Shown: in pieces, positions 2,682 through 56,500 of the stretch
Numbering within the stretch: the stretch's first letter is position 1
How the letters are laid out: each line of letters opens with the position of its first letter
Origin: Acidimicrobiia bacterium
GTDB taxonomy: Bacteria; Actinomycetota; Acidimicrobiia; Spongiisociales; SHLN01
Direction: 5' to 3'
Assembly: GCA_041619515.1 (NCBI GenBank)
Contig: JBFKDW010000001.1
Coordinates: forward strand, 15,129-79,128
DNA: 64,000 bases
Program-made: the position numbers and the translations under genes
Notes under the pieces: generated by a model
What the model was told of the DNA's origin: nothing
What the model saw: only the letters and a program-made list of their open reading frames with translations
Database searches by the model: none

Positions 2682-2701
2682 GCCGACTCCCGCGAGTCGG
2701 C
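2682..2701 (-). terminator. GC-rich hairpin (GCCGACUC-GCGG-GAGUCGGC) overlapping the stop codon of the REC-GGDEF gene; possible terminator/insulator ahead of the rib promoter
   Basis: Perfect 8-bp inverted repeat with a 4-nt loop seen in the sequence. The downstream tract (CCGCCUAUUCG) is only weakly U-rich. Confidence 0.3.
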
Positions 2702-22230: not shown

Positions 22231-22313
22231 GTAGAGGATGGTAGGCGGGAACCCAGGGCCGGCGTAGCTCCTTGCAGAGGTCTCCAACCACTAGGCGAAC
22301 ACGGCCGGCGAAG

Positions 22314-25160: not shown

Positions 25161-25193
25161 TGTTACTCCGCCTCAAGACACGAGCGCAGTGCC

Positions 25194-25207
25194 TTGTAAT
25201 TACAAGA
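25194..25207. promoter_or_regulatory. Perfect 14-bp AT-rich palindrome CTTGTAATTACAAG in the pilM upstream region (candidate operator)
   Basis: Seen in the sequence inside the only conspicuously AT-rich 100-bp stretch in the window (25161-25261). It lies about 35-47 bp upstream of the pilM ATG. A direct repeat ATTCGGG-N16-ATTCGGG lies 5 bp further upstream. Confidence 0.3.
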
Positions 25208-25261
25208 ATGTCATTCGGGAGATTAACAAACGATTCGGGCAGCGCAAGTCATAGCGGCGGC

Positions 25262-26038
25262 TCACCGGCCGAGATACCAGTCGACGAGCTGCTGCCCGAT
25301 CACCAGGGCCAGGTACGAGCCAAAGATCATGGCGGGTCCGAACGGGATCTTCGCCTTGCGGGTGGCTCTGCCGGCCAGCAGAAGGGCAATCGCGACCACC
25401 CCGCCGATGGCGATTCCGAGGGCAACGCCGGCGCCGAGCACCTCCCACGATCGATAGGTCAGGAAGAGCCCCAGGAAGAAGGCGAGCTTTACGTCACCCA
25501 GACCAAAGCCGCCGCGGGCGACGAGGGCAAGGGCGAGGAAGATCGCGAAATATAGGCTTGCCCCGGCGAGCGCCCGGCCAAAGGAAGCGAGATCTCCATC
25601 AGCGATGGCCGCCACGAGCAAGAGCGCAGCACCGACCAGCGTCGACGGATAGAGGATGCGATTCGGCAGCCGATGGACATCCAGGTCGGTGAGAACCAGC
25701 GCAAGGCCGACTCCCGCAAACCACAGGTAGGCCGGGAGCTCGGGCTCGATCCCAATAACGAGGACCGCAGACGCGAAGAGGATGGCGGCGCCCACCTCGA
25801 CGATCGGGTAGCGGACGCTGATATGGCCTCCACAGTCCCGGCAACGACCCCGCAGCAACACCCACGACAGCACGGGAATGTTGTCTCGCGGCCGGATGGC
25901 TGCCCGGCACACCGGGCAGGCGGACGGTGGTGAGACGACCGAGTGGCCGGCCGGGACCCGGTAGGCAACCACGTTGATGAACGAGCCGAAGATGAGGCCG
26001 AACAGTGCGGCCACGGCTACCGCAGGAAGGGCATCCAT
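25262..26038 (-). CDS. pilD: Prepilin peptidase (A24 family) PilD
   Basis: N-terminal zinc tetracysteine motif CPVC...CRDC, a polytopic membrane protein with catalytic Asp motifs (DLDVHRLP, GLGDVKL). Confidence 0.85.
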   Translation of the reverse strand: MDALPAVAVAALFGLIFGSFINVVAYRVPAGHSVVSPPSACPVCRAAIRPRDNIPVLSWVLLRGRCRDCGGHISVRYPIVEVGAAILFASAVLVIGIEPELPAYLWFAGVGLALVLTDLDVHRLPNRILYPSTLVGAALLLVAAIADGDLASFGRALAGASLYFAIFLALALVARGGFGLGDVKLAFFLGLFLTYRSWEVLGAGVALGIAIGGVVAIALLLAGRATRKAKIPFGPAMIFGSYLALVIGQQLVDWYLGR

Positions 26039-26066
26039 GAGGCCTCGACCCTAGTGACCGGGGGCG

Positions 26067-26543
26067 TTACCAGCCTGAAGCCGACCAGGTCCCGACGCCC
26101 GGGGGGCCGGCGGCGCTGCACGCACCGAACGGGTTCGCCGAGTGGCGGCCGAATTGGGTGCCACCGGCCGAGTTCTCCCAGATGGCGAGGAACTCACCGC
26201 GCGGGGTCCTGGCAACGAGACACACCACCTGAGCGGTGGGATCGATGGTGACGGCGACGGGGTCGAAGGTGTTGACGGCCGGGCTGGCACCGGTGACGTT
26301 GAACAAGCTCGGCTCGATCGCCGACAGCAGATCGAGATCGTCCGTGAACTGGGCTGCCCCGCCGGCGTAGTACGCCTTCTCCGTGGTGAGAGCGTTCCTG
26401 AGGTGGCTCTTGGCGGCCGAATCCTCCGCCTCCTTGCGTTGACCGAGGAAGGTCGGGATCGCAATGGCGATGAGGATCGCCACGATGAGGACGACGATCA
26501 TCAATTCGATGAGGGTGAATCCTCGGTCGTCTCTGCTCCACAT
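26067..26543 (-). CDS. pilA: Type IV major pilin paralog (class III signal peptide RG|FTLIELMIVV)
   Basis: MWSRDDRGFTLIELMIVVLIVAILIAIAIPTF..., a C-terminal Cys pair and ...SASGW. An SD sequence GAGAAGG lies upstream of the ATG at 26543. The rest of ORF 26067..26864 is an extension. Confidence 0.8.
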   Translation of the reverse strand: MWSRDDRGFTLIELMIVVLIVAILIAIAIPTFLGQRKEAEDSAAKSHLRNALTTEKAYYAGGAAQFTDDLDLLSAIEPSLFNVTGASPAVNTFDPVAVTIDPTAQVVCLVARTPRGEFLAIWENSAGGTQFGRHSANPFGACSAAGPPGVGTWSASGW

Positions 26544-26629
26544 GGCGGCGCCTTCTCGTTGACTGTACGTCGGGTTTTCGGCGCGGACCGACCGGCTCTT
26601 GAGCGATATGCGTCGCGAATCCGATGGCT

Positions 26630-26661
26630 CCCAACAACAGGAAACGGGCCCCGAAGGGCCC
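26630..26661 (-). terminator. Intrinsic terminator after the first pilin gene: GGGCCC-UUCG-GGGCCC stem-loop followed by GUUUCCUGUUGUUGG
   Basis: Seen in the sequence on the minus-strand RNA about 30 nt after the pilA1 stop. It has a GC stem, a UUCG tetraloop and a U-rich tail. Confidence 0.55.
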
Positions 26662-26688
26662 GAATCCGGTTTGCTTATCGAGCTGGGT

Positions 26689-27153
26689 TTACCAGCCGCC
26701 TGGCGTCCACGGAGCGCCGGGCTGGGCGACCGGGCAAGGCGCCGTAGTCGGAGCCGCCGCAGCTTTGTAGTAGACGGTTCCGGCAGTGGTCCCATCCCAG
26801 ACGGCGAAGTAGTCGCCGCCATCGCTCTGCTGCACGAGGCAGACAGAGACGCCACCAGCACCAATGGTCACCGTGACCGGGTCCGCACCGGTGCCGAACA
26901 GGTTCGGCTCGATGGCGGCAAGGTCGGCGGTGGTCGCCGTGAAGACCTGGTTCACGGAGAAGTAGGCCTTCTCGGTCGCCAGGGCGTTACGGACGTTGCT
27001 CTTGGCAGCGCTGTCCTGTGCGTTCTTCCGCTGACCCAGGAAGGTGGGGATGGCAATGGCGACCAGAATGGCAATAATCAGCACCACGACCATCAGCTCG
27101 ATGAGTGTGAAGCCCTCGTCCTTGTTGAGACGGGACCGCATCGCTTTGAGCAT
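26689..27153 (-). CDS. pilA: Type IV major pilin (class III signal peptide EG|FTLIELMVVV)
   Basis: MLKAMRSRLNKDEGFTLIELMVVVLIIAILVAIAIPTF..., a C-terminal Cys pair and ...TPGGW. A strong SD sequence AAGGAG lies 8 nt upstream of the ATG at 27153. Confidence 0.85.
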   Translation of the reverse strand: MLKAMRSRLNKDEGFTLIELMVVVLIIAILVAIAIPTFLGQRKNAQDSAAKSNVRNALATEKAYFSVNQVFTATTADLAAIEPNLFGTGADPVTVTIGAGGVSVCLVQQSDGGDYFAVWDGTTAGTVYYKAAAAPTTAPCPVAQPGAPWTPGGW

Positions 27154-27333
27154 CTGATGTTCTCCTTGCGAGCATCTACGGCCGAGCCTTTACCCGACCT
27201 TCGTACCCATGAGCTATCGACACGCTGGGTGACGAGTTGAGGCTTTTCCGTGGCTATTACCGGGCGCACCGACGCACTAGCGCGTCGAGCGGTGCTGCCT
27301 CGGTGGGGGCTGATGCGGCAGGTGCGGGAGCAC

Positions 27334-30087: not shown

Positions 30088-31748
30088 GCCACCACCCGCA
30101 TGATTTCCTCGAGAGACGTCATGCCGGAGGCCACCTTTTCCAAGCCGTCCTGCCACAGGGTCGTCATACCCTCTTCGATGGCAACGGCCTGGATCTCGTC
30201 GGAGGGGCGCCGCTCGACAGACATCCGCTGAATGTCCTCACTGACGAGCAGAACCTCGTGAAGCGCCAGGCGACCGCGATAACCGGTGTTGGCGCACGAC
30301 TGACACCCGACCGCTTCGAAGACATGCTTGGGCACGTCGAGGCCGGCAGCCTCGAACTTGTCGGCAGCGGGCGCCGCCTCCTGGCGGCACTTGTCACACA
30401 ATCGGCGCGCCAGCCGCTGAGCCAGGATGGCGTCTATCGACGATGCCACCAGATACGGCTCCACGTCCATTTCGATGAGGCGGCCGATGCTGGAAGACGA
30501 GTCATTCGTGTGCAGGGTGGAGAGCACGAGGTGGCCGGTGAGGGCGGCCTCGATCGCGATCTGCGCCGTCTCCCGGTCGCGAATCTCACCGATGAGCGCG
30601 ATGTCGGGGTCGGCGCGCAATATCGACCGTAGCGCCGAGGCAAACGTCAGGCCGGCTTTGCGGTTGACCTGGACCTGGGTGATCCCGGCCAGCCGATACT
30701 CGACCGGGTCTTCCGTCGTGATGATGTTCACTTCCGGCCGGTTGAGCACGTTGAGCGTGGCGTACAGCGTCGTGGACTTCCCAGAACCGGTCGGGCCGGT
30801 CACGAGAATGGCTCCGTAGGGCTTGGTGTAGGACGACTCGAAGCGGGCAAGGTTGTGAGCGCTGAAGCCGAGGTCGGTCAGCTCCAGCAAGATGGAGCTT
30901 CGATCCAGGATCCGAAGCACCACCTTCTCACCGTAGACCGAGGGCAGCGTCGCGACACGCAGGTCGACCTGGCGGCCCTGGACTTTGAGGCTGATACGGC
31001 CATCCTGTGGGATCCGTCGCTCGGCGATATTGATGTCCGCCATGATCTTGAGGCGGCTCACCATGGCGTTGGTTATCGAGCGGGGGGTGGTCATCGCCTC
31101 GTGCAGAACGCCGTCGATCCGGAAGCGGACCCGCAGGTCCTTCTCCCCCGGCTCGATATGGATGTCCGAGGCACGTTCGTTCATTGCCCGCGTGATGATC
31201 GTGTTCACCAGCTTGACGACCGGTGCTTCGTCGACCGAGGCTTCGATGGCGCTGAGGTCCTCGACTTCCGCTCCCTCGTCGAGCAGATCACCGAATTCCG
31301 AGACGGCATCATCGAACTGAGCCATCCTCGAAAGAGCATCCATGACCTCAGTGCGCGTGGCTACCTTGGGGCGGACATCCATGCCGGTGATGGCCCGGAT
31401 ATCGTCGATCGCCAGCACGTTGGCCGGGTCTGCCATTGCGACGATCAGGCTGCCGTCTTCGGAGAATCCGATGGGGATGGCGGCGTAGCGGCGGGCGAGG
31501 GCTTCCGGTACGAGAGCACTCGCCGAGGGATCGATGGTGACCTCGTCGAGGGCGACGAACTCCAGCCCGATATGGCGGGCAAGGGTCTTGACGAGATCGG
31601 TTTCCTTGACGAAACCCTCTTCCACGAGGATCCGCCCGAGAGGCATTCCGCTTTCGGCTTGAATCTCGGTCGCACGATCGAGATCGGCCCTGCTCAGCAG
31701 GCCTTCCTGGAGCAGCATCGTGCCGAGATGCCGCGCTTCGGTAGTCAC
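30084..31748 (-). CDS. pilB: Type IV pilus assembly (extension) ATPase PilB with N-terminal MshEN-type domain
   Basis: GspE-family core with Walker A GPTGSGKST and tetracysteine zinc motif (CDKC...CQSC). The N-terminus HLGTMLLQEGLLSRADLDRATEIQ and LGRILVEEGFVKETDLVKTLARHIG matches the tandem MshEN consensus RLGxxLLxxGLLxxxxLxxxLxxQ. Confidence 0.9.
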   Translation of the reverse strand: MTTEARHLGTMLLQEGLLSRADLDRATEIQAESGMPLGRILVEEGFVKETDLVKTLARHIGLEFVALDEVTIDPSASALVPEALARRYAAIPIGFSEDGSLIVAMADPANVLAIDDIRAITGMDVRPKVATRTEVMDALSRMAQFDDAVSEFGDLLDEGAEVEDLSAIEASVDEAPVVKLVNTIITRAMNERASDIHIEPGEKDLRVRFRIDGVLHEAMTTPRSITNAMVSRLKIMADINIAERRIPQDGRISLKVQGRQVDLRVATLPSVYGEKVVLRILDRSSILLELTDLGFSAHNLARFESSYTKPYGAILVTGPTGSGKSTTLYATLNVLNRPEVNIITTEDPVEYRLAGITQVQVNRKAGLTFASALRSILRADPDIALIGEIRDRETAQIAIEAALTGHLVLSTLHTNDSSSSIGRLIEMDVEPYLVASSIDAILAQRLARRLCDKCRQEAAPAADKFEAAGLDVPKHVFEAVGCQSCANTGYRGRLALHEVLLVSEDIQRMSVERRPSDEIQAVAIEEGMTTLWQDGLEKVASGMTSLEEIMRVVA

Positions 31749-31801
31749 GTTGTCTCCTTGCCTCTATCCCGGTGGGCTTTCGGCAGTGAATGGGTGAGGC
31801 T

Positions 31802-32590
31802 TTAGAGATTCGACCCCGGCGAGTGGTCACGCGCAACGGCCTCTCGCATCGCCGAAAGAGAGGGGGTCACGCCGGTCCAGAGCTCGAAGGAAAGGGCCGC
31901 CTGATGCAGCAGCATTTCGATCCCTTCCACCACGGGTATGCCGAGGCCGGCTGCATGCTCGACTGCCGGAGTTGGGACCGGACCGTAAGGCATATCGAAG
32001 AGTCCGCCGGCCGATTCGAGGAGGCGATCGGGAAGGTGCCGGGCGTGCATCCCGAGCGGGGTGGCGTTGACCACCACTGCCCCATCGATCGGCTCACCCC
32101 AGCGGGCTACCGTGGCTTCGACACCGGTCCTGGTGATCAGCGCCGCGGCTGCCTCGGGGCGTCGCGCGGCCACCATGAGTGGTCGGCCCTCGAGCGCCAC
32201 CATGGCAGCGGCAGCGGCGCCGCCGGCGCCCAGGAGGAGCACCGCACCGTCGGGGAGGCCGTCCCAGGCCCGTCTGATCGCTTCGACATCGGTCGACTCT
32301 CCAATAACGACGCCGTCGGACACGATGAGGGTGTTGACGCTGGCGGCCCGATCGGCCTCAGGCCCGACGACGTCGACCAGGCGGGAGGCCAGCGCCTTGT
32401 GGGGCATGGTGACGTTGGCGCCATCGAGCCCACCGCGCCGCAGGTCGGCGACGGCGGCCTCCATCCCGGCCGCATCGGTTCGGCGTGCCACGTACGATCC
32501 ATCGACGCCGGCCGCTCGCAGCGCGGCGGTGTGCAGCCGTGGCGACAGGCTGTGTGACACCGGGTCACCGAGCAGCGCGAGCTTCAGCAT
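31802..32590 (-). CDS. aroE: Shikimate dehydrogenase
   Basis: Contains LGDPVSHSLSPRLH...NVTMPHK...LLLGAGGAAAAA, an AroE. Confidence 0.85.
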   Translation of the reverse strand: MLKLALLGDPVSHSLSPRLHTAALRAAGVDGSYVARRTDAAGMEAAVADLRRGGLDGANVTMPHKALASRLVDVVGPEADRAASVNTLIVSDGVVIGESTDVEAIRRAWDGLPDGAVLLLGAGGAAAAAMVALEGRPLMVAARRPEAAAALITRTGVEATVARWGEPIDGAVVVNATPLGMHARHLPDRLLESAGGLFDMPYGPVPTPAVEHAAGLGIPVVEGIEMLLHQAALSFELWTGVTPSLSAMREAVARDHSPGSNL

Positions 32591-32649
32591 TCCGGCACGG
32601 TAGTGCTGCCCGGCTCCGGTCCGGCCGATGAGGGCACGGCCGGTGCCTT

Positions 32650-33768
32650 CTAGATCACTCCTTCAGCCCGCGCCTTGGCTACCTTGGCGTTGTGTTCGTC
32701 GAGGGTTGATGAGAAGCCATGGCGGCCGTCGAAGTCCACCACCACGTAGTAGTAGAAGTTGGTGTCGGCCGGATCGGCGGCCGCCTCCAGCGAGGCGCGC
32801 CGGACCGCGCCGATGGGAGTGGGCACCAGGCCGGCATATCTATAGGTGTTGTACAGCGAGTCGATCTCGCGATCTACCGCCAGCGGCACTCCCCGCACCC
32901 CCTTGGCATACACGAGAGCGGCGTCGATGTTGAGCCCCTGGCCGATGGCGAGCCTGTTGTAGATGACGCTGCTGATCAGCGGGCGGTCCTCGTCGAGCTT
33001 CGCCTCGGCCTCGACCATCGAGGCAACGATGAGCGCATCGTAGATGGCTTCGTTGGTGGCGGTCTCGGGATCATCCACGAAGCCGAGCGATTCGAGCCGC
33101 GACCAGTCGACGGCGGCCACGCGGTCTTCCATCGTGGAAACCAGCGTGCCGACAATGGTGTCGGGGGTGGCGTCGACGAAGAACTCATACGTGTCCGGGA
33201 ACAGGAGGCCCTCCCACTGGCTGAGGCGGTCACCGCTCATGGACTCCGGCATGAGGTTGGATGTCACCCGTCCCGACAGGAGCGGCTCGGACAACTCCTC
33301 GGCGGTGTACTCCGTTTGCCTGGCCAGAGACGCAATGACTTCATCGACCCAGAGGCCCTCGATGACGGTGATTCGGAAGGTCTGCCCGCCCACCGGCCCC
33401 CGCACCAGCTCCTCGAGCACGGCGTCGACGCCCATTCCCGTGGTCAGGCTGTAGGAACCGGCTTTCAGGACGGCGTTCAAACCCCGGACTGCGACCTCGT
33501 CGACGAATTCGACCGAAGAGGCGATGACTCCGGCGTCGGCGAGGAGCGAGCCGATGTTGCGGGCAGTGGACCCGCTCGGAATGTCGACTGCCACCGGAAG
33601 CCCTGCCACAAGGGTGGAGGCGGCCTCCGGGCGAACCGCCTCCCCTGCCCAGCTCCCGATCCGGACGGTGGCAAACGCCCCGGCTGTCAGGAGCACCAGG
33701 GTGACGAGCGGCGCCACCCAGAACGGACGGCGCGGCGGAATTGGATCGTATTGAGGGACGACGGTCAT
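32650..33768 (-). CDS. mltG: Endolytic murein transglycosylase MltG (YceG-like)
   Basis: N-terminal TM and a YceG domain (GSYSLTTGM...YNTYRYAGLVPTPI). Confidence 0.8.
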   Translation of the reverse strand: MTVVPQYDPIPPRRPFWVAPLVTLVLLTAGAFATVRIGSWAGEAVRPEAASTLVAGLPVAVDIPSGSTARNIGSLLADAGVIASSVEFVDEVAVRGLNAVLKAGSYSLTTGMGVDAVLEELVRGPVGGQTFRITVIEGLWVDEVIASLARQTEYTAEELSEPLLSGRVTSNLMPESMSGDRLSQWEGLLFPDTYEFFVDATPDTIVGTLVSTMEDRVAAVDWSRLESLGFVDDPETATNEAIYDALIVASMVEAEAKLDEDRPLISSVIYNRLAIGQGLNIDAALVYAKGVRGVPLAVDREIDSLYNTYRYAGLVPTPIGAVRRASLEAAADPADTNFYYYVVVDFDGRHGFSSTLDEHNAKVAKARAEGVI

Positions 33769-40039: not shown

Positions 40040-41253
40040 TCGATGATCCGGTCCTGATCAACCCGCTCCTCCTGTCCGGATGAAAGGCGCTTGGCTGTGA
40101 CCTCACCCTTCGCCCATTCGTCGCCCACCACGAGGGCGGTGGCGGCTCGGCGACGGTCGGCCGCCTTGAACTGAGCCTTCACGCTCCGACGCCCGAGATC
40201 GATGTCCGCCCGTACGCCGGCCGATCTGAGGTCCGCCACCAGCTCGAGCCCGTCGCCCCAGAGGTCCTCGACGGCGACGACCACGAACGCGTCGAGGGCG
40301 GGCTCAGCCGCCTCGTCCTCTTCGAGCGCCAGCATGATGCGGTCGATCCCCAAGCTGAAGCCGACCGCCGGCACGCTGCCCCCTCCGATCGCCTCGGCCA
40401 GCCCGTCGTAGCGCCCCCCGCCCCCGACTGCGTTTTGGGCAGCGTCGAGGCCCGTTGCAACGTACTCGAACACCGTGCGGGTGTAGTAGTCGAGGCCGCG
40501 TACGAGATCCGCCTTCTCCACGAACGGGACGCTGCGCCGGTCGAGGCCGGCCTGCACCTGGTGATAGTGATGACGGGCGGCATCGCTCAGGTGGTCGACC
40601 GGGCGGGGCGCGCCCGCCAGCAGTGCCCGGTCCGGCTTCGAGTCGAACACGCGCAGCGGGTTGGTCTCGATGCGGCGTTGACTGTCGTCGCTGAGCCGAT
40701 CGGCGATCCCGGTGAGGTACTCGGTGAGAGCGCGCCGGTAGGCCACCCTCGTCTCGGCATCGCCGAGCGAGTTGAGCTGAACTTGGAATCCCTTCAGCCC
40801 AATGGCCTCATAGAAACGGAACCCAAGCTCGATCACTTCCACATCTGCTTCAGCCGCGTCCTCACCCAGATACTCGACACCCACCTGCCAGAACGAGCGG
40901 CGGCGGCCCGCTTGCGGCCGTTCGTACCGGAACATGGGGCCCGAATAGGCGAGCTTCATGGGGATCTGGCGGCCGGTATTCAGGTACGCCCGCACCATCG
41001 AGGCCGTCGCCTCCGGGCGCAACGTGAGCGAACGACCGCCCTTGTCCTCGAAGGTGTACATCTCCTTTTGCACGACATCGGTCCCCTCCCCCACGCCGCG
41101 CTCGAACAGGCCCGTCGCCTCGAAGATGGGCGTGATGGCGAGGTCGTAGCCGTAGCGCTCACTCAAGACATCAAAAGTGGCCAGCACCCGACGCCAGCGC
41201 CGCGATTGGGGTGGGAGAAGGTCGTCGGTGCCCTTGGGCGGACGAAAGCTCAT
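40009..41253 (-). CDS. hisS: Histidine--tRNA ligase
   Basis: MSFRPPKGTDDLLP...RYERPQAGRRRSFWQ...GGGRYDGL. Start at the ATG at 41253. The 207-aa upstream part of ORF 40009..41874 is a spurious extension overlapping the MBL gene. Confidence 0.85.
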   Translation of the reverse strand: MSFRPPKGTDDLLPPQSRRWRRVLATFDVLSERYGYDLAITPIFEATGLFERGVGEGTDVVQKEMYTFEDKGGRSLTLRPEATASMVRAYLNTGRQIPMKLAYSGPMFRYERPQAGRRRSFWQVGVEYLGEDAAEADVEVIELGFRFYEAIGLKGFQVQLNSLGDAETRVAYRRALTEYLTGIADRLSDDSQRRIETNPLRVFDSKPDRALLAGAPRPVDHLSDAARHHYHQVQAGLDRRSVPFVEKADLVRGLDYYTRTVFEYVATGLDAAQNAVGGGGRYDGLAEAIGGGSVPAVGFSLGIDRIMLALEEDEAAEPALDAFVVVAVEDLWGDGLELVADLRSAGVRADIDLGRRSVKAQFKAADRRRAATALVVGDEWAKGEVTAKRLSSGQEERVDQDRIIEWIHSRVRTS

Positions 41254-41897
41254 ACGAGGCCTTGCAGGAAGGGGTTGGTGCGCCGTTCGCGGCCAATCGT
41301 AGTGGCGGGCCCGTGGCCGGGAAGCACATCGATGTCGTCGGCCAGGGTGAGCACTTCGGTTTGCATCGACGCGAGCAGCGTGTCCCAATCCCCGCCGGGA
41401 AGATCGGTCCGGCCGACCGAGCCCGCGAACAGCTGGTCGCCGGAGAACAACACCCCTTCGGATTCGAGCAGAAAGCAGCAGTGACCGGGCGTATGCCCCG
41501 GTGTGTGCAGCACCCGCAGGGAGGTTCCGGCCAGATCGAGCTGCTCGTGGGATGCCAGATCGACGAAGGTGTCTGGTGGGTCGAAGTCGCCGGGCGGCAC
41601 CATCCCGAACAGGGATCGCAGTTGAGCCTCGGGAGATGCGGCCAGCCATTCGTCGTCGGGGTGAAGATAGACACTCACCCGATGCCTGCGCGCAAGCGGC
41701 CCGGCTCCACCCAGATGGTCGATGTGGGCGTGAGTCAGCAGCACCGCCACCGGCGTCAGATCGTGAGCGCGCAGCAGCTCGCCGACGCCTTCGGGGTCGG
41801 GCGGGGCGTCGACGACCACCGCCAGCCCTCCGGGCCCGGGCGCCAGCACATAGCAGTTCGTGCCCGCCACCCACAGCTCCCGGTAGTCGATGATCAT
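41250..41897 (-). CDS. MBL-fold metallo-hydrolase (glyoxalase II-like)
   Basis: THAHIDHLGG...HTPGHTPGH...D metal-binding motifs. Its stop overlaps the hisS ATG (ATGA). Confidence 0.75.
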   Translation of the reverse strand: MIIDYRELWVAGTNCYVLAPGPGGLAVVVDAPPDPEGVGELLRAHDLTPVAVLLTHAHIDHLGGAGPLARRHRVSVYLHPDDEWLAASPEAQLRSLFGMVPPGDFDPPDTFVDLASHEQLDLAGTSLRVLHTPGHTPGHCCFLLESEGVLFSGDQLFAGSVGRTDLPGGDWDTLLASMQTEVLTLADDIDVLPGHGPATTIGRERRTNPFLQGLV

Positions 41898-42063
41898 CGC
41901 CTCAGGCTATATCGACCGTCGAGTCGCCCGGCCGGGGTCGTAAAGATGCTGCCGGAGGCTGCCGACACCTTCTCTGCGGGGCGGTGACCAGCCCCGCTGC
42001 GATCGACTGCAATGACACGCCGAAAAGCTTCACAATCTCACACTGTGTGCCGATAGCCACCAC

Positions 42064-43632
42064 ATGAAGTGCGCATCACCGTACCCGAAACTGAATGACG
42101 AACGTGGGTTCGGCCTCATCGAGGCCGTGGTCGCCACTGCGCTGTTTCTCATTCTGTTGGTCATCTCGATCGGACCCATCATGTCGTCGCTCGACCGCCT
42201 CGACACCGCCCGTTTGACGACCGAGGCCGAGAAGCTGGGCGAAGCCCGACTCGAATCTATTCGCGCGCTCGACTTCGACGACGTGGGCCTCACCTTCGGC
42301 AACCCGGCCGGCGTCATCGATCCCTCGATCACCATCACCGGCGACACCGATTGGGAGATCACCACGGACATCCAGTGGGAAGGCGCCATCAACGGGACCG
42401 ACGAGGTCAACTACAAGACGGTCGAGATCGTCGTCACCCATCCCAGCGGAGCGATCGACCCCGTCCGATTCAGCAGCATCGTCTCACCCGACCGGCTCAG
42501 CGACTCCAGCAACAAGGCAACGGTGACGGTGGACCTCACGCTCATGGAGCCGACTCCGTCCGGAGTGACCCCTCCCAAGGTGTTCCTCGTCAAATCGGAT
42601 GGGGCGGGCAACGCCAACGGCTCGGTGTTCCCTCTGGCCGGTGCCACGACCACCCAGTGGGTCTATCCCCTTCTGAATCCGACCGATCCCAACGTCGGCG
42701 ATCCCAATTACGAGATGGTCATGCGGTTGGGGACCGAACTCGACGACATCGACAGCGATGGTTGGTACATCGCCGGCGAAGCCCTGACCAGCGGCGCCGA
42801 TCGATTCCGGCTCTTCCCGGCCGAGATCAAGAACGTGACCCTACCTGTCTACCGGCCGGCTCAGCTGAAGGTCGACGTGACCGACGTCGACACGGGACTG
42901 CTCATCCCAAATGCCTCGCTGACGCTGGATAACGGCGTGCAGTCCGAGACTTTCACTTCCACCGACGGGACCTTCTTCATCGAAAGCGCGTTTGGCTACC
43001 CCCTGGTGCCGGACACCTACGACCTGACCGTGGAGGCCTTCAGCTACGCATCGGAGACCCGCAGCTCGGTGGTCATCCCCGCCGCCTATCCTGACCCGCT
43101 TCATACCGAATCATTCGCGCTCGAGTTCCGGCCTACCGTCCCGGTGATCTTCACTATCGCCGACACCGACGGTTGGCCGATTCCGCTCGCAACCATTTCG
43201 GTCGTGGGCCTCGGCGAGGTCACCACCGACGAGTACGGGCAGGCCACGATGGCGACTCCGGTCGGCACCCGAAGCTGGCCGGCCAATATCACGTCGCCGG
43301 CAGGCCACAAGACCGCCAACATCCCCTTCGACTTCGATACGGGCACCCTGTATGTGGAGCTTGGGGTTCCAAGCTCGTCACACCGGCTGGTGCACTTCTT
43401 CAACGGATCCGGCGACCACTGGGGAGCCAAGGAGACGTCCGGCAGCGAGCCGTATTCGCACATCGAGCCCGATTTCAACGGAAACGGGACGGCGGTGGTC
43501 TACGCCAACAACACCCGATGGGATTTCGGGCTCATCTGCTCGGACGACAGCGTCGAGTGGGAGTGGACGAACGTCCGGGTTCGCTCCCAGACCTCGATCC
43601 TCTCGGTCGACGCCGGTGGTGCTTCGTGCTGA
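42064..43632 (+). CDS. Large prepilin-type minor pilin (class III signal peptide ERG|FGLIEAVVA; 522 aa) with extended C-terminal domains
   Basis: The N-terminus MKCASPYPKLNDERGFGLIEAVVATALFLILLVISIG is a prepilin cleavage/methylation motif with Glu at +5. The long beta-rich C-terminal region has no recognisable enzyme motif. Confidence 0.7.
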   Translation: MKCASPYPKLNDERGFGLIEAVVATALFLILLVISIGPIMSSLDRLDTARLTTEAEKLGEARLESIRALDFDDVGLTFGNPAGVIDPSITITGDTDWEITTDIQWEGAINGTDEVNYKTVEIVVTHPSGAIDPVRFSSIVSPDRLSDSSNKATVTVDLTLMEPTPSGVTPPKVFLVKSDGAGNANGSVFPLAGATTTQWVYPLLNPTDPNVGDPNYEMVMRLGTELDDIDSDGWYIAGEALTSGADRFRLFPAEIKNVTLPVYRPAQLKVDVTDVDTGLLIPNASLTLDNGVQSETFTSTDGTFFIESAFGYPLVPDTYDLTVEAFSYASETRSSVVIPAAYPDPLHTESFALEFRPTVPVIFTIADTDGWPIPLATISVVGLGEVTTDEYGQATMATPVGTRSWPANITSPAGHKTANIPFDFDTGTLYVELGVPSSSHRLVHFFNGSGDHWGAKETSGSEPYSHIEPDFNGNGTAVVYANNTRWDFGLICSDDSVEWEWTNVRVRSQTSILSVDAGGASC

Positions 43633-44264
43633 GACGGCTGCGCTCCGAAGCGGGCTTCACCATCGTCGAGGCCTCGGTCTCGGTGGTCATCATGAGCATT
43701 CTGCTGGGCGCGGTGTTCAGCGTGATCATGCGGGTGCAGACCGACGCTGCCGACCAGATCTCGGCCGCCGACGCCCAGCGGGCGCTGCGCGATGCCGCCC
43801 ACGACATCGACGTCGAGCTGCGCCAGGCCAACGCCGACGGGCCGGACGCGAACCCCGTCAAGCTGCTGGCGTGGGATGAGATCCGCTTCACGTCGTACCT
43901 CAACGCCAGCGCCGGATTGCAGCTCCATCGGTACTTTCTCGACGGCTCTTGTGCCAGCGGGTGCACGCTCAAGAAATCGGTCTATGCACCGGTGCCGGCC
44001 TCCGATCCGGTCGTCTACGAGGCAACACCGCTGTTCACATCCACGCTGGTGGAGGACCTGATCGCCGCGCCCACCAGCCCCGCCTTCGTCGGCCAGGAAT
44101 GGGTAGGGGGCGCGCTCAACGGCATCTCGGCATGCGATGACGCTACCGCCGCCAGATGCGATTTCAGCCTGGTCGAACTGTCGTTTCGGGCCGACCCGAC
44201 CCCATTCGGGGCCGTGGCGGACGTCGTCATCGTTGAGCAAGTAAGGATTCGCAATGCGCGCTAG
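43626..44264 (+). CDS. Prepilin-type minor pilin (PilW/PilV-like; 212 aa)
   Basis: The GTG at 43626 overlaps the upstream stop (GTGCTGA). VLRRLRSEAGFTIVEASVSVVIMSILLGAV has the prepilin motif G|FTIVE. The N-terminal 150 aa of ORF 43173..44264 is an artefact. Confidence 0.6.
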   Translation: MLRRLRSEAGFTIVEASVSVVIMSILLGAVFSVIMRVQTDAADQISAADAQRALRDAAHDIDVELRQANADGPDANPVKLLAWDEIRFTSYLNASAGLQLHRYFLDGSCASGCTLKKSVYAPVPASDPVVYEATPLFTSTLVEDLIAAPTSPAFVGQEWVGGALNGISACDDATAARCDFSLVELSFRADPTPFGAVADVVIVEQVRIRNAR

Positions 44265-45846
44265 AGACATCCATTCCGAGGATTCGGGCGTCGCCCTCAT
44301 CACCGTCATCATGGGCTTCTTCGTGGTGGCGCTGCTGGCCGTTCTCGTCATGTCGAACTCCGAGCGGCAGGTCGACGACGCATTCCGCACGTACCGGGAG
44401 GACCGCAGCCTGGCGGCCGCCGAGGCCGAGCTCGAACGCTATGCCGCCCATCTCAGCGAGAACGGGCTCTACTACCAGTCGAAGGTGGACGAGGCGGAGC
44501 GTGCTCGAGAGTGCACGGTTTCGGCCCTGCCGGCCAGCATCGGTGTCGTGCGGGAGCCCGGGGAGGCGTGGTCCGACCTGCAGTGCAGCGAATGGGACTA
44601 CCAGGAACCGGCCACCGGATGGTACGAGAGCCCGTTCCTGACCGCGGTGGCGGCCGGCGAACGGGTTGAGATCGCAGTCGAGGTCACACCTCCGGTGGCC
44701 GGCAGCGCCCTGCAAGTGCTCGTGGTGGGCCGAAACCTGCTGGGCACCGAGATCCGCTCCGTCAGCGCAGCGATGCGGGCCGAGTCTCTCTCGGAGTATG
44801 TCCGCTCCTCGGCCGGCAACCTGAGCTACGGGAGCAACGTCGACGTCACCGGCAAGATCTTCGCCCAGGGTGACCTCAACTTCAACACCCCGGTCGGGAC
44901 CGTGCACGACGATATCTATGTGTCGGGGCGCCTGCTGCGGGCACCCATCTTCGAGGACGGGGCCATTGCCTACGTCGGGAATCGGACGGTCGCCCAAACG
45001 CCCCCTCAGTACCTGCCGTTCGCCGGATCGCCCGTCGACGGATTCGACTTCGGAACCCTCTGGTCTCAAACCATGGTCGCCAAGTCGGCGGCCTGTCTCG
45101 GTGGCGGCCTCTGTCTCGATGCCATCGGTGACGATGCCGGAGCCCGCAGCTACCTGATCGATCCCGCCGGCGACGACCTTCGCATCTGGTACAGCACCAC
45201 CAGCTTCTCGACCTCGTGCACCAACGCCATCATGGCGTCGGATGGATCGGGGAGCGCCACCTGGAACTGGCTCGGCACATTTCCCATCCCGGAGAACGGC
45301 GCCGTCTGGGCCGCCGGCGACGTCGTGTTCGGAGATCGGGACACCGGCGGCCCCGTCGCCTTGCTCGACACCAGCATCACCATCTACGCCGGCGACTCCC
45401 CGGACCCGGGAGACGACCTGCCCGGAGTTCCCAATGCCGGACCGCAGAACATCATGCTGAACAAATCGACCATGGTCCGTCAACGCGACGGCTCGATGCC
45501 AGGCGGCACGGCGGTACTCGCCCTCCTCACATCCGGCCAGGGGTACTTCAAGCGGGAGGCCGGCGAGATCACGGGTGACGAGCTGATCTTCGAGGGGTCG
45601 CTGCTCACGCAGGGCGGAACCTTCATCGGCACCTCGTGCGGCGCGTCTGGGGTTCCCGTCGCCTTCACGATCCGCGGTTCGCTCACCTCCCTCGGCACCG
45701 GGTCGATGTCGGGCACCTTCTTCCGTCGCAACTACGGTTTCGACCCGAGGCTGGGGTACATCCGCCCACCCTTCTTCCCCCTTGTCAACGACCAGTGGTG
45801 GTGGCAGGACTGGCGCGAGATTCCACCTCCCGACTGGGCCCGATAA
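44254..45846 (+). CDS. PilX-like (PilX N-terminal-domain) pilus-associated protein, 530 aa
   Basis: The N-terminus SGVALITVIMGFFVVALLAVLV is a hydrophobic PilX_N-type segment lacking the Glu+5 of true prepilins. It is followed by a large Gly/Ser/Thr-rich domain with Cys pairs. Co-operonic with the two prepilin genes. Confidence 0.6.
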   Translation: MRARDIHSEDSGVALITVIMGFFVVALLAVLVMSNSERQVDDAFRTYREDRSLAAAEAELERYAAHLSENGLYYQSKVDEAERARECTVSALPASIGVVREPGEAWSDLQCSEWDYQEPATGWYESPFLTAVAAGERVEIAVEVTPPVAGSALQVLVVGRNLLGTEIRSVSAAMRAESLSEYVRSSAGNLSYGSNVDVTGKIFAQGDLNFNTPVGTVHDDIYVSGRLLRAPIFEDGAIAYVGNRTVAQTPPQYLPFAGSPVDGFDFGTLWSQTMVAKSAACLGGGLCLDAIGDDAGARSYLIDPAGDDLRIWYSTTSFSTSCTNAIMASDGSGSATWNWLGTFPIPENGAVWAAGDVVFGDRDTGGPVALLDTSITIYAGDSPDPGDDLPGVPNAGPQNIMLNKSTMVRQRDGSMPGGTAVLALLTSGQGYFKREAGEITGDELIFEGSLLTQGGTFIGTSCGASGVPVAFTIRGSLTSLGTGSMSGTFFRRNYGFDPRLGYIRPPFFPLVNDQWWWQDWREIPPPDWAR

Positions 45847-48036
45847 TCACTGGCTCCCGGCCGGGGTCGGCCGAAATACGTTGTAGATCCCGTCGATGTC
45901 CCGCAGATCGGTGATTGCCTGTTCCAGCTGACTGGGATCGGACAGCTCGACCTCATATCGCAGCGTGGCCGTGCGGTCGGCGCTCACCTGCGAGGACGAG
46001 GAGAGGATGTTCGCACCCAGGTCGGAAAGAACCGAGGTCACGTCCCGCAGGAGACCAGGGCGGTCGAGGGCCTCCACCTGCACCCACACGACGAAGCTGG
46101 CCCCACCGGTTGCCGACCACGCAACGTCGATCATCCGCTCCGAGCGCTCGGATAGATCGCCGAGGTTGGTGCAGTCGGAACGGTGCACCGAGACACCGCC
46201 TCCGACGGTGACGAAGCCGACGATGTCGTCGCCGGGAACCGGATCGCAACAGCGGGCCATGCGGACCGCAAGATCATCGTGTCCCTCGACCACCACCTCG
46301 GGAGCGAGACGCCGCGGATCACGCGAGCGCATGGGCAGCAGCTCGGCAACGTCCTCCTCGGCCACTTCCGGACGCAGCAACCGCACCAGCCGGGTCACCA
46401 CCGAGGACGAGGATACGTTCCCCTCGCCCACCGCCACGTAGAGCGCATCGACGTCCTGGTAGCTGAAGGCGTGTCCCACTTCCTCGAGAAGTCGATCCCG
46501 CCGGGCTCCGGTCAGGCCGAGCCCCTCGCGGGCAATGGCGCTCAGCACGTCCTCCTTACCGGTTGCCAGGGCTTCTTGGCGCCGTTCCCGGTTGAACCAC
46601 TGTCGAATCTTGGCGGCTGCCCGCGAGGTCTGGGCGAACTTCAGCCAGTCGCGGCTCGGGCGAGCCGACTGCGAGCGCGAGGTGGAGATCTCGACGATAT
46701 CGCCAGACTTGAGCTGAGTATTCAGGGCCACCAGCCGGCCGTTGACCTTGGCGCCGACGCAGCGGTGCCCGACCTCGGTGTGGATGGCATACGCGAAATC
46801 GACCGGAGTGGCTCCCTTGGGAAGAGTGATGACCTTGCCCTTGGGCGTTACCGCGAACACCTCGTCGCGGTACAGGTCGATCTTGAGGCCCGCCAGAAAC
46901 AGCTCGGGGTCGACAAAGGTGTCCCGCAGGAAGTGGATGTCGGCCATCCACGCCAGATCGCCGGGAGCCGCCCCCTCCTTGTAGCCCCAATGGGCGGCGA
47001 CGCCTCGCTCAGCCCTCGCATGCATGTCACTAGTTCGGATCTGCACCTCGAGCGGCTTGCCGGCCGGGCCGAGCACCGTCGTGTGGAGGCTCTGATACAG
47101 GTTGAACTTGGGTGTGGCGATGTAGTCCTTGAACCGGCCGTGGACCGGGGCCCACAGCGTGTGGACGACACCGAGGGCACCGTAGCAGTCCGTGATGTCC
47201 TCGGTGATGATGCGGATCCCGATGAGGTCGTGCAGCTCCTCGAACGGGTAGCCCGTCTCGATCATCTTTCGGTAGATCGAATACGGATGCTTCGGCCGAC
47301 CCGTCACCTCGGCCTTGATGCTGGCGCTGGCAAGGGCGGCGGAGACCTCCCGGGTAGCGGCCTCGATCACCCCTTCCCGGGCGGGAGCGCGTTTGGCGAG
47401 CAGCTCGCGGATCTCGGTGTTGCGTCGCGGCTGGAGAATGGCGAAACAGCTGTCCTCCATCTCGTGCTTGATCTCCTGCATGCCGAGACGATGAGCGAGC
47501 GGAGCGTAGATATCCAGCGTCTCCTGGGCGATCCGCTGCTGTTTCTCGGCGGCGAACGGTGCCAGGGTGCGAATGTTGTGCAGGCGATCGGCGAGCTTGA
47601 TCACAAGAACCCGCACGTCGTCGGCCATGGCGATGACCATCTTGCGGATGGTGGCGGCCTGGGCTTCGTCCCGGTCTTCGAACTCCACCCGGTCGAGCTT
47701 GGTGACCCCGTCGATGAGGTCGGCTATCTCATCATCGAAGTCCCGGCGCAGCTGATCGAGATCGACGTCGGTGTCCTCGACCGAATCGTGGAGAATGCCG
47801 GCGACCAGCGTGGCCTCGTCGAGGCCGTAGTCGGCAAGCAGCTGGGTCACGGCCAGCGGGTGGAATATGAACGGCTCACCGGTCAGACGGGTTTGTCCGG
47901 CGTGCAGCTCGTCCGCCAGCTGGAAGGCGCGTTCCAGCAGGGCAGTCGAAGCGTCGGGGTGGAAATCGAGGTAGGCGTCGACGATCCGTTGGAAGGCCGC
48001 GGCGGCGGTGGTCGGAGCCTGCTCAGGGATGCTCAT
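45847..48036 (-). CDS. rel: Bifunctional (p)ppGpp synthetase/hydrolase Rel
   Basis: HD hydrolase domain (HDSVEDT), synthetase domain, TGS and a C-terminal ACT. Its stop codon directly abuts the stop of the convergent PilX-like gene. Confidence 0.9.
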   Translation of the reverse strand: MSIPEQAPTTAAAAFQRIVDAYLDFHPDASTALLERAFQLADELHAGQTRLTGEPFIFHPLAVTQLLADYGLDEATLVAGILHDSVEDTDVDLDQLRRDFDDEIADLIDGVTKLDRVEFEDRDEAQAATIRKMVIAMADDVRVLVIKLADRLHNIRTLAPFAAEKQQRIAQETLDIYAPLAHRLGMQEIKHEMEDSCFAILQPRRNTEIRELLAKRAPAREGVIEAATREVSAALASASIKAEVTGRPKHPYSIYRKMIETGYPFEELHDLIGIRIITEDITDCYGALGVVHTLWAPVHGRFKDYIATPKFNLYQSLHTTVLGPAGKPLEVQIRTSDMHARAERGVAAHWGYKEGAAPGDLAWMADIHFLRDTFVDPELFLAGLKIDLYRDEVFAVTPKGKVITLPKGATPVDFAYAIHTEVGHRCVGAKVNGRLVALNTQLKSGDIVEISTSRSQSARPSRDWLKFAQTSRAAAKIRQWFNRERRQEALATGKEDVLSAIAREGLGLTGARRDRLLEEVGHAFSYQDVDALYVAVGEGNVSSSSVVTRLVRLLRPEVAEEDVAELLPMRSRDPRRLAPEVVVEGHDDLAVRMARCCDPVPGDDIVGFVTVGGGVSVHRSDCTNLGDLSERSERMIDVAWSATGGASFVVWVQVEALDRPGLLRDVTSVLSDLGANILSSSSQVSADRTATLRYEVELSDPSQLEQAITDLRDIDGIYNVFRPTPAGSQ

Positions 48037-55716: not shown

Positions 55717-55828
55717 ATGTTTGGGAGCTTAGGCGAGCAGTGCGACACCGCCAAGGAACCGCCCCACGCGATAGCCGCGGCCGGGATGTCGGGCCTCGCT
55801 GAATTAGCTCTCAACATGACCACTCTGG

Positions 55829-56500
55829 GTGACGAAGCATATCGCCATGTGCACGAAAGAATGCGGCATGACCCAGCCTCCGGATGAGCAGGAGCTGGTG
55901 GAGGCCTTCGAGATCGTGGCTCGGGATGCGTTCGCCTTCCTGGGCCCGGAGCACCAGATGCGGCCGTCGGGACTGGCTACCTTCGTGCTGGACGATGCAA
56001 GCCGGCATCGCCCGGTAGCAGCTTCCGACCTCGCCTATCCATTCCTCGCCGTGCTCGAGTTCACGGGCAGTGGCCCCCCCGTCAGGATCAGCTACGGAAA
56101 TCGGGAGTACCGGCTGGAGGTTGAGATCGCCGCCAACGGGACCGGTTATCACCCGTTGGCAAGCTGGCTGAGCACGCTCGGCATCGACAACCGGGCGCCC
56201 GACCACTCGGGAGTGGCCACGCCGACCGCACTCGCCCGGCATGCCCGGCGGCTCGCTCAGGGACTGCGGGAACACCTCCCCGAGATGCGCGAAGCCGGGC
56301 CCGACGATGTTTCCCGTCTCGGCTCGCACACCGGCCTGACGGCGGCCGCACTCAACCGGAACAGAGACCGGGCGCAGGCCGCTTTCGCCGCCGGTGAGTA
56401 CCAGGCGTACATCGAGCTGCTCGCCCCCTTCGAGAATGCCCTCACCGTCACAGAGAAGCGAAAGATGGAGTTCGCACGCGCCAAACGAGCGGCGGCGTAG
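55829..56500 (+). CDS. Hypothetical protein with no recognisable motif; the only plus-strand gene in a 50-kb minus-strand block
   Basis: 223-aa ORF with protein-like composition (F, Y, E, K present, not Arg/Pro-biased). It fills the 808-bp interval between ruvC and yebC. Alternative starts are the ATGs at about 55847 and 55868. Confidence 0.45.
   Translation: MTKHIAMCTKECGMTQPPDEQELVEAFEIVARDAFAFLGPEHQMRPSGLATFVLDDASRHRPVAASDLAYPFLAVLEFTGSGPPVRISYGNREYRLEVEIAANGTGYHPLASWLSTLGIDNRAPDHSGVATPTALARHARRLAQGLREHLPEMREAGPDDVSRLGSHTGLTAAALNRNRDRAQAAFAAGEYQAYIELLAPFENALTVTEKRKMEFARAKRAAA

Follow-up and report, generated by a model that had tools for sequence, protein, structure and literature searches.

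Three overlapping genes for pilin-like proteins in an Acidimicrobiia genome raise the question of whether they encode the starter and tip subunits of a type IV pilus (T4P) and, if so, what takes the place of PilY1, which does the job of plug and adhesin in proteobacteria. To our knowledge, the T4P of Actinomycetota, above all those of the environmentally abundant Acidimicrobiia, are essentially unstudied. A preliminary description had proposed that the genes form a separate minor-pilin operon, which might specify a tip adhesin or initiation complex replacing PilY1. Analysis of the whole 64,000-nucleotide stretch of DNA around them (hereafter the window) and of related loci supports this proposal through conserved motifs, a nearby T4P machine, linkage to pil genes elsewhere and predicted folds.

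Gene organization and pilus machinery of the window

The gene coordinates (Table 1) bear out the earlier account of three overlapping plus-strand genes, here termed P1, P2 and P3, which diverge from the hisS/MBL block. The GTG start of P2 overlaps the stop of P1, with 7 nucleotides shared between the two genes and 11 between P2 and P3, and these start/stop overlaps suggest co-translation of the trio, whose order corresponds to that of GspI-J-K (PilV-W-X). A scan of positions 41700-46200 returned no sigma-70-like promoter, and the sole terminator-like site lies inside P1 and is not above chance expectation. The genes of the pil cluster (22.3-31.8 kb) lie 10-20 kb from the trio, some 15 kb on the whole and on the opposite strand, and co-regulation is not evident.

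Table 1. Positions of the trio, the neighboring hydrolase gene and the T4P machinery within the window
Feature	Position	Strand	Remarks
P1	42064..43632	+	ATG start, TGA stop, 522 aa
P2	43626..44264	+	GTG start, 212 aa
P3	44254..45846	+	ATG start, 530 aa
MBL-fold hydrolase gene	41250-41897	-	trio runs divergently from this gene and hisS
PilO	22856-23452	-	Pfam PilO 9.3e-11
PilN	23446-24069	-	Pfam PilN 7.7e-06
PilM	24069-25160	-	Pfam PilM_2 2.4e-40
PilD prepilin peptidase/N-methylase	25262..26038	-	Pfam A24_N_bact 1.2e-32, Peptidase_A24 3.1e-10
Short major-pilin paralogue 2	~26067-26549	-	~160 aa; G/FTLIELM motif
Short major-pilin paralogue 1	26689-27153	-	154 aa; G/FTLIELM motif
PilC platform protein	27334-28554	-	Pfam T2SSF
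Second PilB/PilT-family ATPase	within 28555-30237	-	Pfam T2SSE plus MshEN, reported jointly for both ATPases
PilB	30084-31763	-	Pfam T2SSE plus MshEN, reported jointly for both ATPases

The two tandem major pilins (26067..27153) are matched by the Pfam N_methyl model at 1.1e-08 and 1.5e-09. The pilins of the pil cluster are all short major pilins, and the window contains no minor pilin besides the trio. Further, the C-terminal β-propeller domain of PilY1 is present in no gene of the window, nor beside the trio in related loci, and the earlier remark that a PilY1 homologue is missing holds for the 64,000 nucleotides.

Conservation and genomic context of the trio

Across the Acidimicrobiia, the trio occupies a near-universal position directly downstream of relA and before MBL-hisS-aspS. 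The order relA-P1-P2-P3-MBL-hisS-aspS-rarA is found in about 20 genomes of the class, where P3 is 31-36% identical, and synteny is conserved in 25 species-level genomes. In the clade studied here, the trio is inverted in place between relA and MBL-hisS-aspS, and no inverted repeats bracket the inverted cassette. A metagenome scan for related loci recovered the same trio in distant relatives, where a large prepilin is followed by a second one of ~185-205 aa and by a P3-like gene. There it directly adjoins pilD, pilB, pilT or pilM along with major pilin genes, as in the arrangement pilA-pilA-P1-P2-P3-pilD-pilM of locus L081; the trio also lies beside pil genes at loci L029, L031, L034, L035, L046 and L047. 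The three genes thus form a unit of long standing that has been passed on vertically. Acquisition by horizontal transfer or with a mobile element was considered and rejected on account of the same housekeeping locus being used class-wide and of the local GC content (0.63-0.66), which falls inside the range of the window (0.63-0.70), at its low end.

Many long spurious open reading frames are found in other frames across this GC-rich region, and neither a Shine-Dalgarno match nor a sigma-70 promoter match is seen upstream of P1, such that chance reading frames or wrongly placed starts might be suspected as the source of the genes or their N-terminal motifs. However, full-length homologues exist, and several Cys, Gly, Pro and Trp positions do not vary in the alignments; P1 and P3 show a GC3 of 0.82-0.85 with coding-type GC1 and GC2 in a genome of 66% GC; and Pfam domains are recognized in addition to the synteny across the 25 genomes. 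The leader and motif region is conserved in orthologues at ~30% identity, and the N-terminal motifs are therefore taken to be translated, rather than lying upstream of the true starts, as the preliminary description had allowed. Its other reservation, that the C-terminal regions could be disordered or compositionally biased, is removed by their invariant residues and predicted β-structure. An artefactual origin is hence already refuted by the conservation data, and we assign it practically no likelihood. Additionally, each of the three proteins has conserved pairs of cysteines, and P1 orthologues contain poly-Thr linkers, features that fit extracellular proteins.

Sequence features and predicted structures of the three proteins

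P1 begins with MKCASPYPKLNDERG/FGLIEAVVA, where the slash denotes the predicted PilD cleavage between Gly15 and Phe16, giving a leader of residues 1-15 and placing Glu20 at +5. Gly-1 and Glu+5 are retained in 23/23 orthologues, in agreement with the canonical prepilin site G/FGLIEAVVA read from it earlier, and the Pfam N_methyl model (PF07963) scores 21.1 bits, 0.1 bit under its gathering score of 21.2. In the predicted structure, the α1 helix and a GspI-type head (approximately residues 16-141) are followed by a conserved but poorly modelled stretch (142-263) and by three β-sandwich modules of transthyretin/CnaB-like appearance at residues 264-345 (Pfam CarboxypepD_reg, 1e-11), 357-435 and 436-522, the last of which carries conserved Cys492 and Cys522. 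The model thereby identifies the head as a small pilin head fold of the GspI type, a match which rests on a region of low confidence since pLDDT is 30-60 over the first 263 residues. The P1 alignment is shallow (10 proteins) and the N-terminal half of the model is therefore poor; a repeat homologue search, using a profile to which distant orthologues had been added, returned the same 10 proteins.

P2 (MLRRLRSEAG/FTIVEASV) has a leader of residues 1-10, with cleavage between Gly10 and Phe11 and Glu15 at +5. Its description as a 212-aa prepilin with a G/FTIVE site is corroborated by an above-cutoff N_methyl match (22.1 bits against 21.2), which is also obtained in 15 of 16 orthologues, and by the presence of Gly-1 and Glu+5 in all 20 orthologues with the N-terminus recovered. 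The alignment of the head domain displays four conserved cysteines and a C-terminal motif E-x-V-R-[LI]-R-N-A. Matches to NCBIfam models are weak, N-terminal and far under the cutoffs, namely PRK10557 (11/16 orthologues), ComGF (9/16) and gspJ (4/16), as well as HpsC. Together with gene order and size, these weak profile matches suggest that P2 would be the subunit in the GspJ/PilW position.

P3 starts with MRARDIHSEDSG/VALITVIMGF, a GspK/PilX-type N-terminus with a leader of residues 1-12, predicted cleavage between Gly12 and Val13, and Thr17 in place of glutamate at +5. In 28/28 orthologues Gly-1 is kept and Glu+5 is absent, and the wider P3 family likewise lacks Glu+5. Hence, of the earlier characterization as a PilX_N-type protein without Glu+5, the motif and the missing glutamate are confirmed, whereas membership of the Pfam family is not: PilX_N (PF14341, cutoff 25.5 bits) finds no match at E <= 1 in P3 or its 12 aligned homologues, and the best score, a sub-threshold 16.9 bits, belongs to one distant member of the P3 family. 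No family was matched in the Pfam search of distant P3-family members and P3 homologues, nor did the P3 family profile match any sequence of a solved structure in the PDB at E <= 10. At E <= 1e-3 the family comprises 1,181 cluster representatives; Pfam does not model it, and its members are hardly annotated at all.

In the predicted structure of P3, a long α1 helix and pilin sheet (approximately residues 13-176) are joined to a large triangular β-solenoid (approximately 180-500), which places a GspK-like pilin fold and a solenoid in one chain, as in the ComZ-type fold. A final conserved strand (515-523) comes after the solenoid in the model; conserved features include cysteines 87, 111, 281 and 287 and a C-terminal segment RPPFFPL..W.W..WRE. 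P3 falls outside the GspK profile family (NCBIfam NF037980, cutoff 130 bits) and does not possess the α-helical insert domain of GspK. Over the whole length, two methods agree on ComZ as the best structural match, at a low global TM-score of 0.22, while for the solenoid alone the tapirins score slightly above ComZ; the second half of the model is moderately confident, with pLDDT of 37-81 in 10-residue blocks. On the basis of the model, P3 is assigned to the ComZ/β-solenoid PilX type. The preliminary description had suggested a search for lectin-like or vWA-like folds: the C-termini are indeed predicted to be folded, and the folds found are the transthyretin/CnaB-like sandwiches of P1 and the β-solenoid of P3.

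A candidate priming and tip complex

These features favor, as the probable explanation, a role for P1, P2 and P3 as core minor pilins, which would assemble in the manner of GspI/J/K, start and cap the pilus of the 22.3-31.8 kb cluster and present adhesive modules in the stead of PilY1. We infer a pathway of PilD processing, heterotrimer formation, tip location, priming and adhesion. PilD, the enzyme expected to process all three proteins, would cut the short leaders after Gly15 in P1, Gly10 in P2 and Gly12 in P3. The hydrophobic α1 helices would then bring the three proteins together in the membrane as a heterotrimer resembling GspI-GspJ-GspK, with P3 at the apex and P1, by its GspI-type head, and P2 below. 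The apical position would fall to P3 because it lacks Glu5, a residue needed only when another subunit sits above; GspK is the cited example of such a subunit, in which Glu5 is dispensable since it is incorporated first (PMC8727766). The heterotrimer would prime polymerization of the short major pilins by PilB, PilC and PilMNO and thereafter remain at the tip, where the P3 β-solenoid and the three β-sandwich modules of P1 would be displayed as plug and adhesin.

Alternatively, the pilin-like N-termini could serve as signal anchors only, in which case P1-P3 would be surface or secreted adhesins outside any pilus, or else components of a short secretion pseudopilus of the T2SS/Com-like kind. In this genome the trio stands apart from the pil cluster, and the weak profile matches are to T2SS and Hps pseudopilins, both of which are compatible with such a role. 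However, P1 and P2 strictly keep Gly-1/Glu+5 while P3 alone consistently lacks Glu+5, a pattern that marks ordered filament assembly, and in other lineages the trio is part of T4P operons that also encode major pilins and a PilT-like ATPase. Moreover, a classical T2SS requires an outer-membrane secretin, and the window yielded none. We accordingly consider this alternative quite improbable and retain the priming and tip complex as the preferred explanation.

Comparison with known tip complexes and possible ligands

The arrangement has its closest parallels in the GspK-GspI-GspJ pseudopilus tip of type II secretion (PDB 3CI0, 5VTM) and its T4aP counterpart PilV-PilW-PilX. Unlike these, P3 has a β-solenoid replacing the α-helical insert domain of GspK, P1 exceeds GspI fourfold in size, the operon shows no fourth minor pilin resembling GspH/FimU, and there is neither secretin nor outer membrane; in this comparison, every sequence-profile match lies far under the family cutoffs. 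ComZ, the competence-associated tip pilin of Thermus thermophilus HB27 (PDB 6QVI), has been described as joining a pilin fold of the GspK kind to a solenoid like that of ice-binding proteins, an architecture for which the tip is the only possible place (PMC6561018). P3 shares the pilin fold and the triangular β-solenoid, as predicted, whereas sequence similarity is not detectable. The systems also differ in gene order (pilA1-pilA2-comZ-pilA3-pilA4 versus P1-P2-P3), in the host, here a monoderm actinobacterium, and in the GspI-like partner, P1 having ~380 extra residues.

In the cyanobacteria, a β-solenoid PilX has been proposed as a substitute for PilY1 (bioRxiv 10.64898/2026.02.12.705559). 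As this type already has a proposed role, the statement in the preliminary description that the function of the trio is entirely unknown was too pessimistic. The cyanobacterial PilX/HpsA, likened to P3 by description, also belongs to a core minor-pilin set, occurs in genomes without PilY1 (here the window only) and is a proposed tip plug, and HpsB and HpsC are among the weak matches of P2; however, it stems from another phylum, and the sets there include more pilin families. P1, for its part, resembles Streptococcus sanguinis PilB and PilC (PMC8179133) and the type IVb CofB/TcpB in carrying additional folded modules behind the pilin module, which are exposed on the pilus; CofB, as summarized in PMC6561018, has a pilin domain followed by β-repeats and a β-sandwich and initiates assembly. 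Their modules are of vWA, lectin and CofB type as opposed to the transthyretin/CnaB-like sandwiches of P1, which has a GspI-type head and no sequence relationship to them.

The closest folds to P3 bind DNA (ComZ) or cellulose (tapirins), which brings up two specific ligands, each a sub-case of the tip-complex explanation. First, the trio could be a competence receptor, with P3 as a ComZ equivalent binding double-stranded DNA on a retractile pilus and P1/P2 in the role of Thermus PilA2/PilA3. The whole-length match to ComZ points this way, as does the second PilB/PilT-family ATPase of the window, and ComZ is a DNA-binding protein whose partner, PilA2, is a GspI-like pilin (PMC6561018). Yet the want of sequence similarity means that the DNA-binding lysines of ComZ cannot be mapped onto P3, the tapirins slightly outscore ComZ on the solenoid, and comEA, comEC and dprA are absent from the window. 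A competence function thus seems rather unlikely. We know of no report of natural transformation in the Acidimicrobiia.

Second, P3, perhaps with the β-sandwich tail of P1, could be a tapirin-like polysaccharide adhesin, with the tip complex fastening the cell to an insoluble glycan or to exopolysaccharide that the cell itself makes, a scheme modelled on proposals for the Caldicellulosiruptor tapirins and cyanobacterial PilX-EPS/HpsA. Tapirins are not known to be pilins. The match to them (PDB 4WA0, 6N2B, 6N2C) is confined to the C-terminal β-helix, over 158-170 residues at 13-17% identity, and such likeness is generic to triangular β-solenoids, given that ice-binding proteins match too. With no glycoside hydrolase or EPS genes near the trio in the window, polysaccharide binding is a tentative option of low probability.

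Implications

The trio is a real, conserved and uncurated version of an already known kind of system, and its products are probable tip and starter subunits of the Acidimicrobiia T4P. In a more speculative extension, which we hold doubtful, it would be a minimal, PilY1-independent three-subunit priming/tip complex (I-J-K without an H-type subunit) ancestral to monoderm Actinomycetota, with the P3 solenoid as a dedicated DNA or polysaccharide receptor, the GspI-type P1 as a long β-sandwich stalk extending the reach of the tip, and the position downstream of relA reflecting a coupling of pilus tip and stringent response. With the likely tip/priming module of these pili identified, the ComZ/β-solenoid-PilX answer to the lack of PilY1 is extended to another phylum. 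A curated model of the P3 family would reveal pilus tip subunits in many metagenome-assembled genomes, and the P3 solenoid and P1 sandwiches provide defined targets with which to study attachment and uptake in these bacteria.

The P1-P2-P3 cassette and its genomic context

The window is an actinobacterial housekeeping block of 66% GC, transcribed almost wholly from the minus strand, with the gene order pdxST, ruvCAB, queA, tgt, secDF, apt, relA, an MBL hydrolase and hisS, followed by aspS, rarA, alaS, mltG, aroE, aroC, aroB, efp, pyrC and carAB, among others. Its only sizeable plus-strand unit is a cassette of three genes, P1, P2 and P3, which overlap by 7 nt (P1/P2) and 11 nt (P2/P3). Reading of the sequence confirms the N-termini assigned to them in the preliminary description: NDERG↓FGLIEAVVA in P1, RSEAG↓FTIVEASV in P2 and SEDSG↓VALITVIMGF in P3 (with ↓ marking the predicted prepilin cleavage site), the last with a threonine at the Glu5 position.

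A complete type IV pilus (T4P) cluster is inserted in the shikimate operon between aroE and aroC. It comprises pilB, a second PilB/PilT-family ATPase, pilC, pilD, pilM, pilN and pilO, along with two tandem short major pilins of 154 and about 160 aa. No minor pilins are present within this cluster, and no gene of the 64-kb window carries a PilY1 domain. The second ATPase combines an MshEN-like N-terminal domain with a C-terminal half resembling PilT; over this half, identity to PilT-like genes of related loci is 46-56%. The protein is a candidate retraction ATPase or second extension ATPase. An ORF following pilO, with no Pfam match, could encode a PilP-like component.

Features of the window, with coordinates in nucleotides of the forward strand
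Feature	Coordinates	Strand	Remarks
P1	42064-43632	+	522 aa
P2	43626-44264	+	212 aa; GTG start
P3	44254-45846	+	530 aa
P3 stop codon	45844-45846	+
relA stop codon	45847-45849
P1 to relA stop codon	42064-45849		P3 and relA converge without spacer or terminator
T4P cluster	22314-31763	-
Second ATPase of T4P cluster	28555-30237	-
ORF after pilO	22314-22856		180 aa
aroC	21082-22287
aroE	31802-32662
ORF adjoining ruvC	55820-56497	+	226 aa; good coding statistics, no Pfam match
Response regulator with GGDEF domain	2701-3798	-	near the window start

Conservation and synteny in Acidimicrobiia

A word-indexed search of 5.8 billion proteins recovered only 13 relatives of P3 and 10 of P1, all of them full length and none with a name going further than "hypothetical protein". 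A scan that covered each species by a single genome yielded 25 loci, nearly all labelled as Acidimicrobiia or Actinomycetota MAGs. In about 20 of these, P3 is just 31-36% identical to the window copy, and the order secF-apt-relA-P1-P2-P3-MBL-hisS-aspS-rarA runs in a single direction throughout.

Across the orthologues, the Gly-1/Phe+1/Glu+5 pattern is retained in 23 of 23 P1 sequences and Gly-1/Glu+5 in all 20 P2 sequences with a recovered N-terminus, while P3 shows Gly-1 followed by xA[LM]x[TSAM]V, with Glu+5 in none of 28. Invariant Cys, Gly, Pro and Trp columns extend over the full length of each of the three alignments. This conservation argues that P1, P2 and P3 are real genes under selection. 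The full-length columns and conserved motifs also rule out artefactual C-terminal regions, and the persistence of the N-terminal motifs in orthologues rules out wrongly placed start codons, both of which the preliminary description had considered. As a separate feature, the P1 orthologues of five loci (L009, L012, L014, L017 and L022) have their beta-sandwich modules joined by long poly-Thr/Ser/Gly linkers, at about columns 450-495 of the P1 alignment, which are absent from the window's P1; sequences of this kind typically serve as spacers outside the cell and are possibly glycosylated.

The trio is inverted in place in three loci, the window's own and those of its two closest relatives (L003 and L004), whereas the remaining Acidimicrobiia loci (L001, L002, L005 and L008-L028) all have relA-P1-P2-P3-MBL in one direction. 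As a consequence of this inversion, the stop codons of P3 and relA directly abut; no inverted repeats were found flanking the inverted cassette. In the co-directional loci L008-L028 just about 60-160 nt separate relA from P1, a spacing that would allow for read-through transcription from relA, which could possibly tie the trio to the stringent response.

Sequence and structure relationships

P2 matches the Pfam N_methyl profile at 22.1 bits (cutoff 21.2), and P1 falls slightly below it at 21.1 bits, with an additional match to CarboxypepD_reg; a Pfam search with P3 returned zero matches. Weak N-terminal NCBIfam matches were recovered to ComGE and XpsI (GspI) for P1, to HpsB, HpsC and GspJ for P2, and to GspK for P3, an order over the three genes that is suggestive. 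The P2 orthologues match PRK10557, HpsC, ComGF and gspJ, in every case N-terminally and below threshold.

An AF2 model of P3, built from a 13-sequence alignment, has a pLDDT of 70 overall and about 70-90 over the first 260 residues, and, like the P1 model, contains weak regions. Its elements are a helix some 60 residues long, an antiparallel sheet, an extended succession of short strands and one last strand. The structural matches to it include the tapirin C-terminal domains (scores 10.1-11.1, alignment lengths 158-170), ComZ of Thermus thermophilus (10.6, with the longest alignment at 259), ice-binding proteins (about 8), GspK (6.6), S. sanguinis PilA (6.0) and GspI (about 5.5). Foldseek likewise placed ComZ first, as the sole match at E <= 1e-3 (3.5e-4), with a low global TM-score of 0.22. 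For ComZ, the nearest match of the pilin domain is GspK and that of the solenoid an ice-binding protein, and the authors of that study argued that such a protein fits only at the pilus tip (PMC6561018). The P3 model shows this same pair of fold relationships. Since profile and sequence searches did not place P3 in PilX_N, GspK or ComZ, it should best be called ComZ-like by fold, rather than a family member by sequence.

The wider P3 family and its linkage to pilus genes

An exhaustive HMMER search with a P3-family profile recovered 1,181 cluster representatives at E <= 1e-3, 337 of them at E <= 1e-10, revealing a family far bigger than the word-indexed search had indicated. Most members are 450-550 aa long and align over their whole length. 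They are sparsely annotated; one bears the IMG label "Tfp pilus assembly protein PilX" and one derives from a Thermoleophilia MAG. None of ten sampled relatives has a significant Pfam domain over the P3-like region, and the two that are Pfam-positive (P0142 and P0159) are both fusions. Among the fusions, found in P0142 (2109 aa), P0159 (865 aa) and P0132 (787 aa), one joins a P3-like N-terminal part of 540 residues to six succeeding fibronectin type III repeats and another has a DUF5122 beta-propeller ahead of the P3-like solenoid; hence, the solenoid module appears to be reused among other surface proteins.

A metagenome scan with distant P3 members identified 73 loci, in the longer of which the trio recurs as two prepilins, a large one (about 420-890 aa) and a smaller one (about 185-205 aa), together with a P3-like gene. 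Several of these adjoin T4P genes: pilA-pilA-P1-P2-P3-pilD-pilM (L081), pilT-pilD-P1-P2-P3 (L031), P3-pilD-pilB (L034, L035 and L046) and pilB-P1-P2-P3 (L047, with P2 recognized by its prepilin motif and P3 by the scan match). Three loci (L075, L082 and L084) resemble the window in having the trio placed between relA and aspS. The linkage to T4P genes is independent genomic evidence for the trio as a component specific to the T4P system.

A predicted minor-pilin tip complex

The cassette encodes, in order, a GspI-type subunit, a Glu5-containing subunit of about 200 aa and a GspK-type subunit that lacks this residue. The same order is seen in the GspI-GspJ-GspK tip complex of the T2SS (PDB 3CI0) and in PilV-PilW-PilX of the T4aP. 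GspK itself lacks Glu5, which is thought to be dispensable in the first-incorporated subunit, as that has no earlier contact partner (PMC8727766). On the basis of this order and precedent, we propose that P1, P2 and P3 would all be processed by PilD and assemble into a heterotrimer with P3 on top, which would prime polymerisation of the major pilins and then stay at the tip, where it may display the P3 solenoid and the P1 sandwiches for adhesion. The nearest folds to P3 are DNA-binding (ComZ) or cellulose-binding (tapirins).

In cyanobacteria, beta-solenoid PilX subunits have been proposed to replace the PilY1 plug (2026 preprint, 10.64898/2026.02.12.705559); the earlier suggestion that the window's proteins might stand in for PilY1 amounts to this proposal and suits the present case. 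The trio would be, in function and architecture, of a known kind, namely a tip complex of core minor pilins capped by a ComZ/PilX-type solenoid. A literature search on Acidimicrobiia pili found none. What is new is the lineage, the large uncurated P3 family, the lengthening of a GspI-type subunit (P1) by three predicted beta-sandwich modules, and the stable place of the trio beside relA.
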